IMG/VR virus record: IMGVR_UViG_2884693830_000001 | Span: 1,459-65,458 of that record | Direction: 5' to 3' (one strand) | Length of the DNA: 64,000 bases | From: a virus | Made by a program: the position numbers and the translations under genes | Notes under the pieces: model-generated | Told to the model about the DNA's origin: nothing | Databases searched by the model: none | Seen by the model: only the letters and a program-made list of their open reading frames with translations | Part shown: positions 38,393 to 49,378 of the stretch, piece by piece | Layout of the letters: each line of letters opens with the position of its first letter | Position numbering within the stretch: the first letter of the stretch is position 1

Positions 38393-39418
38393 ATGTCGAC
38401 CCCCGATGCCGTGCACCCCGAATCCAGCACAGTGGGTGCACTGGAACTCCATAGCGGCGGAGAGTTGGAGACCGCAGACGATGCCGCCCGCTGGGCCCGG
38501 CTCGCCGAGCTCGACCAGGCGGCAGAGGCGTTCGAACCCCGCGCCGACAACACCCTGCGCTCATACGCGTCCGACTGGCGAGTGTGGGAACGGTACGTCG
38601 CCGCGGCGGGCATACCGCTGGAGGCCGGCACACCGGGAGCCTTCCTCGGGTTCGTGATCTGGCTCGGCAAGGAGGGCAAGGCGCCGTCGACGATCCAGCG
38701 GAACCTGTACGGCGCGGCGGTGTCCCTGCGGGAACGCGGTGTCGCAGTGCACCCGGACGGCCCGAAGAAGGCGAAGAAGGCGGTCGACGCGCTGGCCCGA
38801 ATGCTGGCCGAGGCGGGGGAGCAGCGGGGCCGCGGCAAGGCCCCGGCGTTGACGGTGATGCAGCTGCGCGCGATGTCGAAGGCGTTGCCGGACACGTTGA
38901 AGGGGCTGCGTGACCGGGCGATCCTCACGGTGGGGTTCGGCATGGCGGCGCGCCGGTCGGAGCTGGCGAACCTCCGTGCCCAGGACGTGGCGGTGACGGA
39001 GAAGGGTCTGCAGGTGTTCGCCCGGTACGGCAAGACCGGCGCCCGCTCGCCCGCGATCAAGAAGGGTGAGAACGAGTGGACGTGCCCCCGGCGCGCCTGG
39101 GTGGCGTGGGCGGCGGCTGCGGACCTCGACCCGGACGGGCCTGCATTCCTGCGCTTCAACCGGCACAAGATGCTGGGCCCGATCACCGCGCAGGGCATCG
39201 GGATCGCCGTCACGGCGGCGGCCGAGGCGGTGGGCTTGGACGGCGTCACCGGGCACAGCATGCGTGCCGGCCTCGCCACGGCGGCGCGGGAGGCCGGGCA
39301 CGACTATCGGACGATCGCTGTCCAGGGCGGATGGGCGCCGAACTCCACCGCGCTGCACGAGTACCTGCGGATCGTGGACCAGTGGGCGGACAACGCCACG
39401 GCGGGAATCGGGATGTGA
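38393..39418 (+). CDS. Cre-like tyrosine recombinase/resolvase
   Basis: N-terminal NTLRSYASDW; catalytic R (ARRSEL), K (GKTG), H-x-x-R (GHSMRAG), W (GGW), Y (HEYL). Confidence 0.9.
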   Translation: MSTPDAVHPESSTVGALELHSGGELETADDAARWARLAELDQAAEAFEPRADNTLRSYASDWRVWERYVAAAGIPLEAGTPGAFLGFVIWLGKEGKAPSTIQRNLYGAAVSLRERGVAVHPDGPKKAKKAVDALARMLAEAGEQRGRGKAPALTVMQLRAMSKALPDTLKGLRDRAILTVGFGMAARRSELANLRAQDVAVTEKGLQVFARYGKTGARSPAIKKGENEWTCPRRAWVAWAAAADLDPDGPAFLRFNRHKMLGPITAQGIGIAVTAAAEAVGLDGVTGHSMRAGLATAAREAGHDYRTIAVQGGWAPNSTALHEYLRIVDQWADNATAGIGM

Positions 39419-39909
39419 GCGCGCCCAGCTGTCACTGTTGACACTTTTCGAGGGTGGGACCAGCTGCTCAAGCTACCCCGCGCGCCATGGCGATGAGCGC
39501 AGAAGGCACAATCCTGCCACGACGGTAGCCGCACTCGCCAAGGCCGTTGTCCGGCCAGTCCTTGTGGACCAGCCGACTCCTCTAGGCCCCCTGATGCTCT
39601 GGCGGCACTGACCCGAGGGCCGTTCCGGCGCCACTCCTCGGAGCAGCCACAATCGCTCAAAGTGTGTGCGAGGGCACAACCTTCGAGTCGTTCCGCTGCT
39701 CAGCGGCAACAAGGCGGCATATATTGGCGCCCGATTCAAAGCGCGTACATCAGTAACGGCCGCCTCATTGTCGCTGGTCGAGAGCGCCCGCCATGTCCAT
39801 CACAAGAATGGCGGTTAAACCACCCTAAGTAACTTGTCAAGCCTTGAAATTGCCCTGGTCAAATACGATGATCCTTCGTGGCCATGCCTCGTCAAGCGGA
39901 AGGATTCTT

Positions 39910-41136
39910 GTGATTAGACGGACACGTTCTGTGTTCAGGATCGTGTTAGCCGCGATCGCCTCGTCCATCATTCTGGCGGGATTACCGGCGACTGCGGCTC
40001 AAGCCCTACCTCCCGATGCCGATGAGATCGCACAGAGAATCCGGCAGGGCAACGCTTCGATCCGCCAAGACACCAGCGCCGGAAAGAAGGCCAGTTCCAA
40101 GCGCAAGGTAAGGTATCTGCAATCGTGCGATGAACTGCGCAAACAGCGTAAAAACTCATCGACGCGAAGCAAGAAAAAGGTCGCATGCAGTACTGGCCCG
40201 AAGATGAGGACAGCAGCCGCCAATCCCGAGGGGGGTGTACCGCCCGGTGTTCCTGACTGGTGCAAGGACGCCGGCCTAGGGTGGTATGCGGCCACCCGCT
40301 TCAACCAGTGCACTTGGCGAACTGAAGGCATCGAGTGGTGGGCTGGCGACTTCGTCGTCGGAGGCATCGACTTCACCCTTTACAACGACATCGTAACCGT
40401 CTGGAATGAGGGGGCGTTCATCTTCGGTGATCACGTCTGGGCCTACAACGAATGGGGGGAATGGGAGCCGGATATGCTCCTTGCCTCCGTCGCGGTCTGC
40501 TCAGCCAACTGCACCATCATAGCTGCGCCACCCAACAAGGACCTTCAGCTGCGTACCTGGATACAATTCAACACCGTAATGCGGTCCACCGTTGCCGCTA
40601 ATGCTGTCGAGACACTGGATCCGGCATCGGGGCTCATATGGGATGGACCGGCATCGGACGATGACGTGGAGTACGTCACCGAGGGCCCGTCCGACCTCCG
40701 CTGCGACAACGGGCTACTCAAGGGCACCGATAACGAGGGATGCGTCATGGCGAACGCCTGGCCTACCCTGACATACAAGGGAAGCGAATGGGACGAGATA
40801 GCACCCCACATAAGCCGATCTCAAGCAGCTGGGTCTCCTGGAACACCGGGAGTCGAGCCTCTTCATCGAATGTACGACGATGCTGATGCCGCGCAGAACC
40901 GCAGGGATGCGTGCAGCTTCATTACTGGCTCCCGTCCGCCCAACTCAGACTGCGACGAGTACCCCATGGCCCACACGTACGAGGGTGCCTACACCTGTGG
41001 CTGTGATGACTTCACCGTAGAATGGGTCGACTCAAGTCAGAACCAGCTGGCCGGACAACGGTACGGTGACTTCGGCCGTGAACAGAGGCTTCTGGACAAC
41101 GATCCGTTCTTCGTCTACGCGGATCTCAGCTCGTAG
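39910..41136 (+). CDS. Secreted protein with a C-terminal NucA/NucB-type nuclease domain
   Basis: Signal peptide ending AAQA; LHR, NRRDAC, CDEYPMAHTYEG, QNQLAG; lower GC. Confidence 0.8.
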   Translation: MIRRTRSVFRIVLAAIASSIILAGLPATAAQALPPDADEIAQRIRQGNASIRQDTSAGKKASSKRKVRYLQSCDELRKQRKNSSTRSKKKVACSTGPKMRTAAANPEGGVPPGVPDWCKDAGLGWYAATRFNQCTWRTEGIEWWAGDFVVGGIDFTLYNDIVTVWNEGAFIFGDHVWAYNEWGEWEPDMLLASVAVCSANCTIIAAPPNKDLQLRTWIQFNTVMRSTVAANAVETLDPASGLIWDGPASDDDVEYVTEGPSDLRCDNGLLKGTDNEGCVMANAWPTLTYKGSEWDEIAPHISRSQAAGSPGTPGVEPLHRMYDDADAAQNRRDACSFITGSRPPNSDCDEYPMAHTYEGAYTCGCDDFTVEWVDSSQNQLAGQRYGDFGREQRLLDNDPFFVYADLSS

Positions 41137-43548: not shown

Positions 43549-43730
43549 GCGCCACCATCACCCGCTGGTCCTTCACCGCGACCATCAACGACAGCGACCA
43601 CCTGCCCGAGGACGTGAGCTACGACGAGGTGACGGCCGAGATCGAAGAGGTCGTCACCGACGCGCTCACCGCCTGGTACAACGAGCGCGGCCACCAACTG
43701 CTTGCCTGCGAACCGGTCGTCGCGTGGTAG
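43545..43730 (+). CDS. Small hypothetical protein
   Basis: ATGA overlap. Confidence 0.6.
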   Translation: MSATITRWSFTATINDSDHLPEDVSYDEVTAEIEEVVTDALTAWYNERGHQLLACEPVVAW

Positions 43731-44314
43731 GCCTCGTGATCCCCGCTGTTCTGGGCCTGCGCGTCGGCTCGCAGGAGCTCACCCTGGCCACATTCGACCT
43801 GCCGATCACGGCGCAGCCCGCCGGCGACTCCGGCGAGGCGAACTTCGCCCTGGACGTCCCCGAGTTCCGCAGCCTCCTCGCCGCCGCGCTCCGCGAAGCC
43901 GCGGCAGAGGTGGAGAAGATCCCCCATGATGATTTCCGCACCCCTGAGGACCCCCGCATGAAGGTGTACGTCACCACGATCGCCCGCGTCTGCCACGAGG
44001 CGAACCGTGTCCTGCAGATCGCGGCGGGTGAGGAGCCGTCACCGCACTGGCCGGACGCGCCCGACTGGCAGCAGGAGTCCGCGATCAAGGGCGTCGAGGC
44101 TGCCCTGTCCGGTGCGACCCCGCAGCACCTCCACGAGTCGTGGTGCGCGGCGAAGCTGGCCGACGGTTGGACGTACGGCCCGGTCAAGGACGCGGCTGCG
44201 CGCACCCATCCGTGCCTAGTGCCGTACGGCGACCTGCCCGAAGCCCAGCGAGTCAAGGACCACCTGTTCCACGCGATCGTCCGCGCCTTCCCCGTGGCCA
44301 GGACGGAGACCTGA
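43724..44314 (+). CDS. RyR-domain protein
   Basis: HESWCAAKLADGWTYGPVKDAAARTHPCLVPYGDLPEAQRVKD. Confidence 0.85.
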   Translation: MVGLVIPAVLGLRVGSQELTLATFDLPITAQPAGDSGEANFALDVPEFRSLLAAALREAAAEVEKIPHDDFRTPEDPRMKVYVTTIARVCHEANRVLQIAAGEEPSPHWPDAPDWQQESAIKGVEAALSGATPQHLHESWCAAKLADGWTYGPVKDAAARTHPCLVPYGDLPEAQRVKDHLFHAIVRAFPVARTET

Positions 44315-44934
44315 TGCAGCGCTACATCAAGTACATGCCGCTGCAGGACATCCCGTCCGCGACGCGGAACGCCAAGGATCATGACCTGGCCAGCATCCGC
44401 CGCTCGATCGAGACGTTCGGGTGCGTTGTCGCTGGAGAGATCGACGAGCGCACCGGCCGGCTCGTCGCCGGTCACGGCCGCAAAGAGGTCCTGATGGCGA
44501 TGTGCGCCGAAGGCGTCACCCCTCCGGAGGGCGTGCAGCTGGCCGAGGACGGCACGTGGCTCGCGGCGCTCGTCCGCGGTTGGCGGTCACGCTCCGACGC
44601 GGACGCCGAGGCGTACATGATCGCTCATAACCGCACCAACGAGCGGGGCGGTTGGGACCAGGACGTGCTGATCAAGTCCCTGGCGGACATTCAGCAGGCG
44701 GACTCGTCCCTGCTCGCGGCCACGGGCTACAGCTCCGACGAGCTGGCCGACCTCGAAGAGGCTCTCGCCGTGGATGCTCATGTGGCCGTGGGCGTGCACG
44801 ACGACGGCGGCGAGGTCGACGACAACACCGCCACCGGCCCGTCGCCGGAGGAGTTCCAGGAGTTCGACGACGACATCGCCACCGACTACCAGTGCCCGCG
44901 CTGCGGTTACGAATGGAGCGGCAAGCCCCGATGA
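44314..44934 (+). CDS. ParB/Srx-like protein of the DNA-modification-associated type, with a C-terminal Zn ribbon
   Basis: RNAKDH..SIETFG..GRLVAGHGR..AYMIAHNR..GGWD; YQCPRCGYEW. Confidence 0.8.
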   Translation: MQRYIKYMPLQDIPSATRNAKDHDLASIRRSIETFGCVVAGEIDERTGRLVAGHGRKEVLMAMCAEGVTPPEGVQLAEDGTWLAALVRGWRSRSDADAEAYMIAHNRTNERGGWDQDVLIKSLADIQQADSSLLAATGYSSDELADLEEALAVDAHVAVGVHDDGGEVDDNTATGPSPEEFQEFDDDIATDYQCPRCGYEWSGKPR

Positions 44935-46022
44935 CCACGCCGCCGTACCACGTACCGAGCATGGCTGAGGTGCGGGCGGTGCCGTGGAACGGCTTCAACG
45001 GCATCAGCACCTTCTCCGGGGGCGGCGGCTCGTCGCTCGGCTACCGCATGGCCGGCCTCCGCATGCTGTGGGCGAGCGAGTTCATCCCGGCCGCCGCCGA
45101 CACGTACCGAGCCAACACCGCGCCGCACACCCACCTGGACACCCGCGACATTCGCAAGGTCACCGCCAAGGACATCCTCGACCGGACCGGCCTGAAGGCC
45201 GGGGAGCTCGACCTGCTGGACGGGTCGCCGCCGTGCGCCGCGTTCTCGACCTCCGGCAAGCGAGAGGCCGGGTGGGACACCGTCAAGACCTACTCGGACA
45301 CCAGGCAGCGGGTCGACGACCTGTTCTTTGAGTTCACCCGCCTCCTGGGCGACCTGCAGCCGAGGGTGTTCGTCGCGGAGAACGTCGCCGGGCTGGTGCA
45401 GGGCACCGCGAAGGGCTACTTCAAGGAAATCCTGGCCGCGCTGCGCAAGCCCGGATACCGCGTCACGGCGCGGCTGCTCGACGCGCAATGGCTCGGCGTG
45501 CCGCAGGCCAGGCGACGGCTCATCTTCGTCGGCGTCCGCGACGACCTCGACATGGAGCCGGTCCACCCGGCGCCGCTGCCGTACCGGTACACGGTGCGCG
45601 ACGCGGTCGGCGATCTGCCCGGCGCGTTCGACGACCTGCAGGAAGACCCGGAGACGGGGCAGCCGCTCACCCTGCGCGGCTACGCCCTCGAAAAGTACTG
45701 GCACCAGCTGCGCCCAGGCCAGGGCCACCGGGTGCGGACCAGCCTCAAGAGGCTGGCCTGGGACCAGCCAGCGCACACGATCGTGGCCAGGGCAGGCACA
45801 GCGGGCACCGCCGCCATCACCCACCCCGACCACCCGCGCTACCCAACCCTCGCCGAACTGCGCAGGTTGGGAGGCTTTCCGGACGACTTCACGCTCACCG
45901 GCAACTACTACCGCAGGTGGGAGAGGATCGGCCGCGCGGTTCCGCCCGTGATGATGGCGCGGATCGCCGCGACCATCCGCGACCAGGTGCTCGTCCCATT
46001 GCGTGACGCGGGGAGGATCTGA
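44931..46022 (+). CDS. C5 cytosine DNA methyltransferase-family enzyme, predicted carboxymethyltransferase
   Basis: FSGGGG (I), GSPPC (IV), ENVAGL (VI), PQARRRL (VIII); motif X reads IGRAVPP instead of GNAVPP. Confidence 0.9.
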   Translation: MTTPPYHVPSMAEVRAVPWNGFNGISTFSGGGGSSLGYRMAGLRMLWASEFIPAAADTYRANTAPHTHLDTRDIRKVTAKDILDRTGLKAGELDLLDGSPPCAAFSTSGKREAGWDTVKTYSDTRQRVDDLFFEFTRLLGDLQPRVFVAENVAGLVQGTAKGYFKEILAALRKPGYRVTARLLDAQWLGVPQARRRLIFVGVRDDLDMEPVHPAPLPYRYTVRDAVGDLPGAFDDLQEDPETGQPLTLRGYALEKYWHQLRPGQGHRVRTSLKRLAWDQPAHTIVARAGTAGTAAITHPDHPRYPTLAELRRLGGFPDDFTLTGNYYRRWERIGRAVPPVMMARIAATIRDQVLVPLRDAGRI

Positions 46023-47437
46023 TGTGCGGTGTCGTCGCCGGTCTCGGGAAACTCGACCTGGCCCCGGCCGTGGGCGCGCTCAAGCACCGAGGCCCCGATG
46101 CGGCCCGGATGGTCACGGTGGCTGGCGTGCACCTCGGTCATACCCGGCTCGCGGTGCAGGACCTCGATCCGCGGTCGGACCAGCCGTTCCGTTCCGGGCC
46201 GGTCACGATCGCGTACAACGGCGAGATCTACAACGCCGCGCAGCTGCGCCAGGCCGTGGAGGAGCGCGACCCGGGCCGGGCCTGGGCGACGACCGGCGAC
46301 ACGGAGGCCCTGGCCGCCGCGCTCGCCGTGCTCGGCCCTCAGCGGGCGCTGCCGCTGGTCGACGGCATGTTCGGCGTGGCGTGGGCGGACGACCGGCGGC
46401 CCGGCGTGCTTCACGTCGCCCGTGACCGGCATGGCGAGATCCCGCTGCATCTGCACCTGGCGCAGCCCGTCATGGCCGCGTCGGAGCTGAAGGCGTTCGC
46501 CGCGGTGGGCCGCCCCATGGCCGCCCACCTGATCGCGGACGTCCCGGCTGGCCAGTGGGGCACGATCCACGGTGGTCGCGCCTCCTGGCAGCGGTTCCAC
46601 AGCCAGCGGTGCACGCCGGTGGGCTACACGCTGGCGCAGGCGTCGACCCGGTTGAAGGCTGCGCTCGCGCAGGCCGTGCGGCGGCGGCTCGTCGCTGATG
46701 TGCCGGTGTGCGCGCTGCTGTCCGGGGGGATCGACTCGGCCGCCATTACGTACGAGCTGGCGCAGCACGTGCCGGGCTTGGTCGCCTACACCGCCCGCAT
46801 GGATCCCCGGTCGCGGGACCTGCGGTGCGCGCGCGAGACCGCCGAGCATCTCGGGATCGAGCTGGTTGAGGTCGACATCCCGGCGCCGACCGCTGACGAT
46901 CTGGCCCGCGTGGTGTGCGTGATCGAGATGCCGTACAAGGCGCAGGTGGAGATCGGTTGGGCGTGTCTGCTGCTCGCCGAGCGGATCCGGGCGGACGGCT
47001 TCAAGGTCACGTACTCCGGTGAGGGGTCCGACGAGCTGTGGGCGTCGTACGGCTTCGCCTACCACGGGCTCAAGACGGCCGACTGGCACATCTACCGGCG
47101 CGACCTGATGGCCGCCCAGAGCAGGAAAAACTTCCCCCGCGTGAACAAGACGTTCATGGCGTACGGCGTCGAGGGGCGGCTGCCGTTCTGCGACCCGGAC
47201 GTGGTCGATCTGGCGCTGTCGCTGCAGCAGCACGCCGTGGCGGACGGCAAGGCCCACCCCAAGGCCGTACTCCAGCGCGCGTACACCGGACTGCTGCCCG
47301 ACGCCGTGGTGCGTAGGCCGAAGGTCGCCTTCCAAGACGGGCTGGGACTCAAGGACGCGATCAGGAGCGTCCTGCCGAACCCGACCCGCTTCTACCGGGC
47401 CGAGTACCAACGTCTCGTCAGGAACAGCAGAGCATGA
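46022..47437 (+). CDS. Asparagine synthetase (glutamine-hydrolysing)-like amidotransferase
   Basis: N-terminal MCG nucleophile, HRGPD, HTRL, YNGEIYN, LLSGGIDS PP-loop, SGEGSDEL, GVEGRLPF. Confidence 0.92.
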   Translation: MCGVVAGLGKLDLAPAVGALKHRGPDAARMVTVAGVHLGHTRLAVQDLDPRSDQPFRSGPVTIAYNGEIYNAAQLRQAVEERDPGRAWATTGDTEALAAALAVLGPQRALPLVDGMFGVAWADDRRPGVLHVARDRHGEIPLHLHLAQPVMAASELKAFAAVGRPMAAHLIADVPAGQWGTIHGGRASWQRFHSQRCTPVGYTLAQASTRLKAALAQAVRRRLVADVPVCALLSGGIDSAAITYELAQHVPGLVAYTARMDPRSRDLRCARETAEHLGIELVEVDIPAPTADDLARVVCVIEMPYKAQVEIGWACLLLAERIRADGFKVTYSGEGSDELWASYGFAYHGLKTADWHIYRRDLMAAQSRKNFPRVNKTFMAYGVEGRLPFCDPDVVDLALSLQQHAVADGKAHPKAVLQRAYTGLLPDAVVRRPKVAFQDGLGLKDAIRSVLPNPTRFYRAEYQRLVRNSRA

Positions 47438-48165
47438 GTAACGACATCGCGGAGCAGTTCGACACGGGCGGTTGGCGGTTCACCGCCGATGTCGCCGAGG
47501 TGTTCGACGACCACGTGCGGGCCAGCGTGCCGCACTACGACGTGATCCAGGACCTCGTGGCCGAGACGACCGACTGGCTCGTCCCGGCGGGCGGCCTGGT
47601 CGCGGATCTCGGCGCATCGACCGGCGCGTCGGCGCGGCGCATCCTCCAGCGGCACCCCACCCGAGACATCCGAATGGTGCTGTACGACCAGCAGCCCGCC
47701 ATGCTCGACCAGGCCGCCGCGGAGCTGAGCAAGCTCGACGGTGAGCACGACGTCACCTTGAGCGCGACCCGCATCCAGTATGGGCCGCTGGTTCACGAGA
47801 ACGCTGATCTCACCTTGGCCTTGTTCACGCTGCAGTTCCTCCCGCAGGAGGAACGCGTGACCGCGCTGCGGCTCGCGCGGGAGTGCTCGGCGCAGAGCGG
47901 CGCGCTGATCGTCGCGGAGAAGATCCGCGCCGTCGACTCGAGGTGGGCGGAGATCGGGAACGACGTCGCGCACGACTACAAGGCGGCGCACGGCATCACG
48001 GACGCGGCGATCCGGGCCAAGGCCCGCGCGCTGCGCGGCGTGCTCCGGCCGTACCCGCAGCAGACGACGATGCAGGCCATGGCCGACGCCGGATGGCACG
48101 CGCCCGAGGTCCTGTTCCGGTGGCATTCGTGGGCGGTGATCGGGGCGTTCGCCTCAGCCCAGTAA
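47434..48165 (+). CDS. CmoA-like carboxy-S-adenosyl-L-methionine synthase
   Basis: WRFTADVAEVFDDHVRASVPHY, DLGASTG, FTLQFL, LIVAEK, K..L.GVL are the CmoA-family layout. Confidence 0.8.
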   Translation: MSNDIAEQFDTGGWRFTADVAEVFDDHVRASVPHYDVIQDLVAETTDWLVPAGGLVADLGASTGASARRILQRHPTRDIRMVLYDQQPAMLDQAAAELSKLDGEHDVTLSATRIQYGPLVHENADLTLALFTLQFLPQEERVTALRLARECSAQSGALIVAEKIRAVDSRWAEIGNDVAHDYKAAHGITDAAIRAKARALRGVLRPYPQQTTMQAMADAGWHAPEVLFRWHSWAVIGAFASAQ

Positions 48166-48180
48166 CGAGGGGGGTGACCG

Positions 48181-48573
48181 ATGTGGTTCGACGAGCAGCC
48201 GCCCCCCGACTGGTCGATCGAGTTACCGCCCGGCCTGGACCTACTGAACTCGAATCAGCGGCTCCACCCCATGGTCAAGGCCCAGATGACGAAGCGGCTG
48301 CGCCGTGCTGGCTACCGGGCGTCCATGGAGATCGGCCTGCCCCGGCTGGAACGGGTGTACGTCGTCGGCGAGCTCCGGCCGAACGACCGGCGCAGGCGCG
48401 ACCCGGGCAACTGGTATCCCTCGGCGAAGGCCGCGGTGGACGGCGCGATGACCGACGCCGGCGTGCTGGTGGACGACGACGCCGAACACCTGGTCGGCCC
48501 GGACATGCGGCTCGGGAGGGTCGTGAAGGGCGGCCAGCTCGTCCTGCACATCTGGCGCGGCACCGACACCTGA
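48181..48573 (+). CDS. RusA-like Holliday junction resolvase
   Basis: LLNSN, RRRDPGNWYPSAKAAVDG..DAGVLVDDD. Confidence 0.8.
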   Translation: MWFDEQPPPDWSIELPPGLDLLNSNQRLHPMVKAQMTKRLRRAGYRASMEIGLPRLERVYVVGELRPNDRRRRDPGNWYPSAKAAVDGAMTDAGVLVDDDAEHLVGPDMRLGRVVKGGQLVLHIWRGTDT

Positions 48574-48580
48574 TCAGCGC

Positions 48581-48859
48581 TCACCACGAAGGGCGGTGCG
48601 CGTCCACGTACGGCCGTCGCTGCTCCCACCGCTCATCGCACCCGGGACTGTGCTTGTCGATCTCGTAGCGGCGCTCCGCAGCGAACGCGCACGCGGTGCA
48701 GCAGTGGGCGACGCCATGCGGCACTCCTCGTTCGCAGTCCGGCTTCGCGCAGTCGTAGTGCAGCCGACCGTCGATCTCGACGGGCCACAGCACCTGGCCG
48801 CGCCGGGCCGGTTCATCGTCGGGCCACGACTCGTCAACGATCCACGGCTCCTCGTACAT
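48581..48859 (-). CDS. Small Cys/His-rich protein on the opposite strand
   Basis: GAAGAGGG RBS; HYDC..DC...HCCTAC..HS.GC. Confidence 0.5.
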   Translation of the reverse strand: MYEEPWIVDESWPDDEPARRGQVLWPVEIDGRLHYDCAKPDCERGVPHGVAHCCTACAFAAERRYEIDKHSPGCDERWEQRRPYVDAHRPSW

Positions 48860-48898
48860 GCCCTCTTCCCCTGTCGTAATTGAACGGAGGCCCCCCTC

Positions 48899-49378
48899 AT
48901 GGTTTCCAGCAGAAAGCGAGCGTCGGCCGCCGTCGTTGCTGAGCGTAGGGCCAAGGCGGTACAGATGCGGATCGCAGGTATCTCGCCGACGATCATCGCG
49001 GAGAACCTCGGCTACTCCGGCGGCTCGGCGGCCGTCGTCAAGGACATCACCCGCTCGATGCAGAAGGCCGCCAAGGCCGAGCACATCGCGTCGGAGCACC
49101 TCCTACAGATCGAGATTGACCGGCTGGACCGGCTCATGGCCGCCGTCTGGGCCAAGGCGCTGTCCGGTGACGTGAAGGCCGTCGAGCAGGCCGAGAAGCT
49201 AATCGCCCGCCGGTGCTCGCTGCTGGGCCTGGATCTGATCAACCGCAACGGGTCGGAGAACTCGGACATCGCCAGCCTGCTGGGCAACCTGTTCGCCAGC
49301 CTGCAGGCCCGGCACGGCCAGGACGAGGTGACGGTCGAGGTGGTCGACGCTATCGAGGCCGGCGAGGACAGCCCGTGA
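48899..49378 (+). CDS. terS: Terminase small subunit
   Basis: HTH (MRIAGIS..IAENLGY), RLDRL...GDVKAV...RRCSLLGLD; directly before terL. Confidence 0.8.
   Translation: MVSSRKRASAAVVAERRAKAVQMRIAGISPTIIAENLGYSGGSAAVVKDITRSMQKAAKAEHIASEHLLQIEIDRLDRLMAAVWAKALSGDVKAVEQAEKLIARRCSLLGLDLINRNGSENSDIASLLGNLFASLQARHGQDEVTVEVVDAIEAGEDSP

Follow-up and report, generated by a model that had tools for sequence, protein, structure and literature searches.

This locus raises the question of whether a phage DNA cytosine C5-methyltransferase homologue that carries arginine in place of the canonical motif X asparagine methylates DNA using S-adenosylmethionine (SAM) or transfers a carboxymethyl group from carboxy-SAM (Cx-SAM). 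The gene lies in a 64,000-nucleotide stretch of virus DNA (the window), corresponding to bases 1459-65458 of the 95,254-bp IMG/VR provirus record IMGVR_UViG_2884693830_000001, which is estimated to be 96% complete. A preliminary description of the window had picked out the Asn to Arg change and proposed that a basic residue at this position pairs with the Cx-SAM carboxylate. The analysis presented here makes it probable, with good confidence, that the open reading frame (ORF) at 44931-46022 encodes a CmoX-type carboxymethyltransferase of a temperate actinophage, acting within a full proposed pathway that would have an amide as its end product.

Natural enzymes with this substitution have recently been described. 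Yang et al. (Nat Commun, December 2025) reported that CmoX of Synechococcus phage S-B43 (SpCmoX) carboxymethylates DNA cytosine and, with SpCmoX, SpCmoA and SpCmoY, demonstrated Cx-SAM synthesis, carboxymethylation at cytosine C5 and a ligase step (PMC12783734). SpCmoX was crystallised with Cx-SAM (8YF3), revealing that Arg350 takes the place of M.HhaI Asn304 and contacts the carboxymethyl group of Cx-SAM in an arrangement that “strikingly mirrors” the engineered N374K substitution of M.MpeI (PMC12783734), which supports the pairing between basic residue and carboxylate put forward in the preliminary description. Wild-type SpCmoX uses Cx-SAM only, and the R350N mutant was dead with both SAM and Cx-SAM (PMC12783734). 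Searching with SPPC plus R350, 5,615 CmoX homologues were mined with 4,257 CmoA on their contigs, and ParBc proteins were found to adjoin many of the CmoX genes (PMC12783734). As such, the suggestion that the motif X residue could be used to mine for natural carboxymethyltransferases was sound in idea but not in novelty, having been published in December 2025 (PMC12783734), and the interpretation as a whole is correct but no longer new since natural Asn to Arg enzymes, a structure and mining are already in print (PMC12783734). The engineered precedent, that M.MpeI N374K uses Cx-SAM and carboxymethylates cytosine, is as the preliminary description gave it (PMC12015181), with the engineered N to K enzymes keeping SAM activity and carboxymethylating with low efficiency (PMC12015181). 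M.MpeI N374K and M.MedI N377K parallel the prediction for the window enzyme in that a basic residue replacing the motif X Asn salt-bridges the Cx-SAM carboxylate, giving 5-carboxymethylcytosine (5cxmC); they differ in having Lys rather than Arg, in being engineered and CpG-specific and in having no CmoA or ligase partners.

The window gene (hereafter window CmoX) and its principal motifs are as follows.

44931-46022, + strand: CmoX-family DNA cytosine C5-carboxymethyltransferase homologue, 363 amino acids (aa), PF00145, closest solved structure 8YF3.

45225-45236, + strand: motif IV, S99-P100-P101-C102, in which Cys102 is the catalytic nucleophile equivalent to SpCmoX Cys98; invariant in an alignment of 24 sequences, comprising homologues 38-62% identical to window CmoX.

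45378-45386, + strand: motif VI, E150-N151-V152, with E150 and N151 invariant in the 24-sequence alignment.

45927-45947, + strand: motif X, I-G-R-A-V-P-P, with Arg335 at the canonical Asn position; predicted Cx-SAM carboxylate binder.

The Pfam family PF00145 (DNA_methylase) covers residues 22-349 of the protein (E 1.2e-49) and TIGR00675 (dcm) matches at 2.2e-46. Translation of 44931-46022 agrees with the earlier placing of the motif X Arg at 45933-45935 in an enzyme with intact PC and ENV motifs, Arg335 being encoded by the codon CGC in a GRAVPP segment that begins at residue 334; the earlier start at 45921 is likewise right, taking in the two residues E-R ahead of I-G-R-A-V-P-P. The canonical motif X Asn (G-N-x-V) is absent, with Arg335 in its place, while motif VIII (QxRxR) is intact as Q192-A-R-R-R196. 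An AlphaFold2 model built with the 24-sequence alignment as input had a predicted local distance difference test (pLDDT) score of 91.6 and a predicted template modelling (pTM) score of 0.91.

By both sequence and fold, window CmoX has SpCmoX as its nearest solved relative, ahead of every SAM-dependent C5-methyltransferase. The top PDB sequence match using HMMER was 8yf3_A (E 2.1e-62, 214 bits), with M.HaeIII the second-best distinct sequence at 89 bits, and in a fold search with the AlphaFold2 model 8yf3 was again best (E 9.2e-31, template modelling score 0.78/0.85), HaeIII, DNMT1/MET1 and HhaI ranking after 8yf3 and the next E being 1.5e-23. Identity to SpCmoX is 40-43% over the full length (BLASTP 40%, E 5e-78). 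Arg335 pairs with Arg350 of 8YF3 in HMMER, BLASTP and global alignments, the HMMER alignment setting 'werIGRavpp' of the window against 'terVGRmvpp' of 8YF3 with the Arg as chain residue 350. All nine residues named for SpCmoX were identical in the global alignment, in which the cofactor residues F25, E47, F48 and D69 correspond to F28, E50, F51 and D73 (invariant or nearly so in the 24-sequence alignment), S95-P96-P97-C98 to S99-P100-P101-C102 and R350 to R335. In ungapped HMMER alignments Arg335 coincides with the motif X Asn of both DNMT1 (V-G-N-A-V-P-P) and M.HaeIII (I-G-N-A-V-P), and the range of the M.HhaI match (query 12-346 to chain 2-315) is consistent with Arg335 corresponding to Asn304. 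M.MpeI was not matched at E 1e-5 or better in the PDB sequence search; the equivalence to HhaI N304 and MpeI N374 was drawn from the 8YF3 alignment with the published superposition, the HhaI ranges and the DNMT1 and HaeIII alignments, and by the first of these routes the earlier equation of the Arg with the M.MpeI N374 region holds.

Judged on the sequence and fold of window CmoX and on the chemistry demonstrated for SpCmoX, it is very probable that window CmoX would place the carboxymethyl group of Cx-SAM on C5 of cytosine while Arg335 binds the carboxylate. By analogy with SpCmoX, the motif X Arg would be necessary, yet reversion to Asn would not yield a methyltransferase; since R350N of SpCmoX is inactive with both cofactors, an R335N mutant of the window enzyme would probably be dead, with no switch to SAM expected.

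Arg335 was invariant in the 24-sequence alignment and a motif X Arg was present in 43 of the 44 homologues examined, the one exception being a pseudogene, indicating that Arg335 is no chance substitution. The association of this residue with CmoA was assessed by fetching 136 loci with 8-kb flanks and looking in each for a CmoA homologue inside those flanks. The set includes 40 IMG/VR relatives of the window enzyme, the cultured phages TurkishDelight, S-B43, Mcat8 and PaBG, 11 loci related to an Asn-type actinophage enzyme, gp54 of Arthrobacter phage Pitbull, and 80 related to the enzyme of Flavobacterium phage FpV9, which has Met at motif X. Where motif X carried Arg, CmoA was found within 8 kb in 42/43 loci, the lone locus without it being a contig that ends 172 bp past the gene. 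No CmoA was found within 8 kb at any of the non-Arg loci (0/92), whether the residue was Asn (0/11), Met (0/80) or Cys (0/1, a pseudogene). The linkage spans unrelated phage backgrounds, namely Streptomyces phage TurkishDelight, the Pseudomonas jumbo phage PaBG, the Moraxella siphovirus Mcat8 and the Synechococcus cyanomyovirus S-B43. The preliminary description had proposed looking for GR-type methyltransferases with cmoA-like neighbours, and these counts bear out the pairing; the association is a small-scale reproduction of the published mining (PMC12783734).

These counts bear directly on the possibility that window CmoX makes 5-methylcytosine from SAM like an ordinary methyltransferase and tolerates the Arg, with CmoA serving the tRNA modification uridine 5-oxyacetic acid (cmo5U) or depleting host SAM. 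The canonical C5-methyltransferase fold with all catalytic motifs present would suit such an enzyme, as would the residual SAM methylation of the engineered N to K enzymes (PMC12015181) and the existence of a Met-type sister clade without CmoA. Wild-type SpCmoX, however, takes Cx-SAM only (PMC12783734), the Arg is lost solely in a pseudogene and keeps company with CmoA in the proportions given above, no CmoB-like tRNA carboxymethyltransferase was found among the neighbouring genes scanned and a dedicated carboxylate-activating ligase is coupled to CmoX. An ordinary methyltransferase is therefore very improbable.

The pseudogene (positions 1-1260 of locus L026, IMGVR_UViG_3300002231_000719) is an Arg-less CmoX-family homologue reading W-A-R-L-G-C-S-V-P-P, in which the conserved Glu is also lost; it has an in-frame stop and a frameshift through motif I and no CmoA in the 8 kb downstream, such that pathway loss and Arg decay go together. 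The Met-type sister clade, represented by the FpV9 enzyme (L046:7884-8951) and loci L059-L138, reads Y-L-I-G-M-S-V-P-P and has 442 IMG/VR relatives that are about 33% identical to SpCmoX and keep SPPC and ENV. The idea of a conserved partner gene marking another cofactor for this clade was dropped, with no neighbour common to more than 18 of 81 loci, and these enzymes presumably use SAM. Across the CmoX family the signature is W-E-R-x-G-R, with Glu331 and Arg332 nearly invariant beside Arg335 (window 45921-45935) and canonical enzymes having K/R-Q or similar at these two positions; Glu331 and Arg332 may help to shape the carboxylate pocket, a point that is not discussed in PMC12783734.

The gene predicted to supply the cofactor lies two genes downstream of CmoX within the same overlapping operon.

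47434-48165, + strand: CmoA homologue, predicted carboxy-SAM synthase (SAM plus prephenate to Cx-SAM), 243 aa, TIGR00740, phrog_4752 (5.5e-52).

On TIGR00740 the window CmoA scored 115.3 bits (E 3.4e-33), with the validated SpCmoA scoring 115.6 bits. Its top PDB matches were 4gek, 1im8 and 4iwn, with 4gek and 1im8 at about 1e-21, making E. coli CmoA and H. influenzae YecO its closest solved relatives. The equivalents of E. coli CmoA residues Tyr39, Asp62, Gly64, Ser66, Asp89 and Glu164 (PMC3663124) are all kept, the Glu164 equivalent being E162.

Between CmoX and CmoA lies a gene that bears on the fate of the carboxymethyl group.

46022-47437, + strand: predicted AsnB-type glutamine-hydrolysing, ATP-dependent amide ligase, 471 aa, Pfam GATase_6/7 plus Asn_synthase.

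The protein matches PDB 1ct9 (E. coli AsnB) at E 5e-39 and starts M-C-G, with a complete glutaminase site (Cys2, R42, N66-G67-E68, D93) and with the PP-loop S234-G-G-x-D-S239 and the SGEGSDE segment kept. Thirteen CmoX-linked homologues at 35-92% identity show no variation at Cys2, in the glutamine pocket, in the PP-loop or in SGEGSDE. Scores on the asparagine synthetase models fall below their equivalog cutoffs, at 244 bits (E 3.7e-72) against a cutoff of 267 for TIGR01536 and 227.5 bits against 499 for PRK09431. The ligase shares with E. coli AsnB (1CT9) the N-terminal Cys, the glutamine pocket, the SGGxDS PP-loop and SGEGSDE, and differs in length (471 aa, 553 aa in AsnB). The segment aligned to E. 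coli AsnB 322-325, in which we take Thr322 and Arg325 to be the aspartate-binding residues, is not conserved in the window ligase, so the acceptor pocket is clearly remodelled. Taken together, the sequence points to an enzyme that would work like AsnB but be no asparagine synthetase, and from its genetic coupling to a DNA-modifying enzyme the predicted acceptor is 5cxmC in DNA rather than aspartate.

The window ligase is of a different type from SpCmoY, the glycine ligase of S-B43. Rather than the stand-alone PP-loop architecture of the CmoY type (about 270 aa, no glutaminase), it has a full N-terminal glutaminase domain, and it is 28% identical to SpCmoY over 160 residues of the PP-loop domain only. 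It is 65% identical to gp124 of TurkishDelight, which by exact look-up is UniRef A0A7T0Q3R0. Yang et al. name this protein as the representative of their second-largest ligase cluster (PMC12783734), which places the window ligase in a cluster that those authors left uncharacterised. Ammonia derived from glutamine was predicted as the substrate of this glutaminase-bearing cluster (PMC12783734). A pattern-based search of IMG/VR for relatives of the ligase returned one close relative, the rest being generic amidotransferases.

In the proposed pathway, CmoA (47434-48165) would make Cx-SAM from SAM and host prephenate. CmoX would then flip out the target cytosine, with Cys102 attacking C6 as in any C5-methyltransferase, and C5 would receive the carboxymethyl group of Cx-SAM while Arg335 holds the carboxylate, generating 5cxmC in DNA. 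The translationally coupled AsnB-type enzyme would adenylate this carboxylate and amidate it with ammonia from glutamine to give 5-carbamoylmethylcytosine, and modification of the DNA would be expected to protect the phage against host restriction. On the strength of the intact glutaminase site and the operon coupling, formation of the primary amide 5-carbamoylmethylcytosine by the coupled ligase is rather likely, and it is to a similar degree plausible, on balance, that the Nonomuraea provirus described here and its relatives carry this base in virion DNA through the glutamine-dependent AsnB-type ligase. No report of 5-carbamoylmethylcytosine in DNA was found in literature searches, the base having been predicted in print only. 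For the window proteins the analysis shows membership by sequence and fold, equivalence of the residues, linkage of the genes and completeness of the catalytic sets, from which we infer that CmoX performs the same chemistry, as well as the amidation with ammonia, the sequence targeted and the role of the modification.

It is possible, if unlikely, that carboxymethylation proceeds as described but that the AsnB-type enzyme makes something other than a simple primary amide, whether by attaching another amine, by acting on a nucleotide or protein substrate or by taking the reaction further, for instance in a QueC-like dehydration giving a nitrile. In favour of this, glycine and perhaps other amines serve as substrates of related phage ligases (PMC12783734), no product is on record for this ligase cluster (PMC12783734), the AsnB aspartate-site segment is not conserved and the PP-loop weakly resembles that of QueC (E 0.005). 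The QueC match, however, is below threshold and covers the PP-loop only, while Cys2 and the glutamine pocket are invariant down to 35% identity in the 13 CmoX-linked homologues, a conservation of the glutaminase site that would not persist unless glutamine-derived ammonia were used. In addition, translational coupling ties the ligase gene to CmoX on one side and to CmoA on the other.

Several observations weigh against the carboxymethylation and amidation pathway proposed above. The 136 loci derive from three clades only, and so the Arg and CmoA counts are not independent events. The window CmoA scores under the curated NCBIfam equivalog cutoff for bacterial CmoA (115 vs 193 bits), as does the validated SpCmoA. 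In E. coli CmoA, Arg199 salt-bridges the cofactor carboxylate (PMC3663124), and in an ungapped alignment this column holds Ala197 in the window CmoA, with Arg198 adjacent and Arg202 lying one helical turn past it, in the column of E. coli Glu203. The validated SpCmoA has Glu/Lys at the Arg199 column and shares the later Arg with the window CmoA, which suggests that the carboxylate-binding Arg may have migrated within the helix in phage CmoAs. The ligase of the cluster to which the window enzyme belongs was not obtained soluble or characterised by Yang et al. (PMC12783734). Finally, the target-recognition region of window CmoX (approximately residues 215-300) is poorly conserved relative to SpCmoX, so the GC specificity of SpCmoX is not transferable; a GC target, if as in S-B43, would hit about one third of the cytosines in the window, a figure that is illustrative only. 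Residues 196-202 of the window CmoA read K-A-R-A-L-R-G (48019-48039), and other phage CmoAs keep K-R.

The remaining genes of the module flank these three.

44314-44934, + strand: ParB-like (ParBc-type) protein, phrog_620 ParB-like partition protein (9.3e-29), first gene of the overlapping module.

48181-48573: RusA-like resolvase, downstream of CmoA, with terminase genes also downstream.

The four genes for the ParB-like protein, CmoX, the AsnB-type ligase and CmoA overlap by ATGA or TGATG, with the ParB-like stop overlapping the CmoX ATG (ATGA) and the ParB-like ATG overlapping the stop of an upstream RyR-domain gene (TGATG). The ParB-like protein is 28% identical to TurkishDelight gp122, a ParB-like nuclease domain protein. 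The RyR-domain protein directly upstream (196 aa, 43724-44314, + strand; PF02026 1.7e-12, phrog_5154 1.9e-40) is encoded in most Nonomuraea copies of the module and is absent from that of TurkishDelight. A few kb upstream of the module lie a tyrosine recombinase/integrase (38393-39418, + strand; phrog_216 1.1e-15) and a gene (39844-41136, + strand) whose 430-aa product carries a NucA/NucB DNase domain at its C-terminus (PF14040 1.3e-6).

The element is a temperate actinophage integrated as a provirus in a Nonomuraea-like host. The large ORFs of the window all lie on one strand and have 66-71% GC, an 11.27-Mb contig also encodes the window CmoX protein and Nonomuraea annotations include near-identical proteins. 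The block of ParB, CmoX, ligase, CmoA and RusA is intact at 76-92% amino-acid identity in seven genomes, six of Nonomuraea and one of Streptosporangium (L139-L144, L146), some copies being on 90-120 kb contigs and others within replicons of 0.4-10 Mb. The recurrence of the block in seven actinomycete genomes indicates that the phage lineage is widespread in the Streptosporangiaceae. A megablast of 44000-49000 against the phage collection gave no match, the relatives being found by protein-level search, by which the nearest cultured phage was Streptomyces phage TurkishDelight.

This distribution also bears on whether the module might be an inactive relic in a decaying prophage that modifies nothing. 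The record is classed as a provirus and the homologue at L026 elsewhere is a pseudogene, in keeping with such decay; against this, the four ORFs are unbroken and retain all their catalytic residues, the module is equally intact in the seven other genomes and the provirus is estimated to be near complete, making a relic most improbable.

Set beside S-B43, an active module for carboxymethylation and amidation in the window would have the same core enzymes in a different setting. Window CmoX and SpCmoX share a fold, the SPPC, ENV and QxRxR motifs, the cofactor residues and the carboxylate-binding Arg, with a CmoA gene in the neighbourhood and a ParB-like neighbour in many relatives. They differ in host and phage type (T4-like cyanophage versus temperate actinophage at 68-70% GC), in gene order (CmoA-ligase-CmoX in S-B43 versus CmoX-ligase-CmoA), in the partner enzyme (the glycine ligase CmoY versus a glutaminase-bearing ligase) and in target recognition, the region being divergent in window CmoX whereas SpCmoX targets GC. 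The TurkishDelight module (gp121-125, MW291017) is closer, having the same order of ParB-like gene, CmoX (59% identity), AsnB-type ligase (65%) and CmoA (64%), an identical I-G-R-A-V-P-P and a position at the genome end beside the packaging genes. TurkishDelight differs in being a cultured Streptomyces scabiei phage that has two ParB-like genes, whereas the window holds an integrated provirus in which the ParB-like gene is single and RusA follows downstream; both modules are known from sequence.

Window CmoX is an additional member of the published CmoX family, from an actinobacterial temperate phage. The rule that a basic residue in place of the motif X Asn marks a user of Cx-SAM is correct and useful for the enzymology of epigenetic sequencing. 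To this the locus adds a natural control set, in which Arg occurs with CmoA in 42/43 loci, non-Arg enzymes in 0/92 and the sole Arg-less family member is a pseudogene, as well as one more well-conserved representative of the glutamine-dependent branch of ligases. Through an actinomycete and its prophage, with TurkishDelight as a lytic alternative, the module would give a culturable route to a ligase class that Yang et al. did not obtain soluble, and natural CmoX enzymes with target-recognition domains unlike that of SpCmoX (GC) could extend the range of tools for labelling DNA with carboxymethyl groups.

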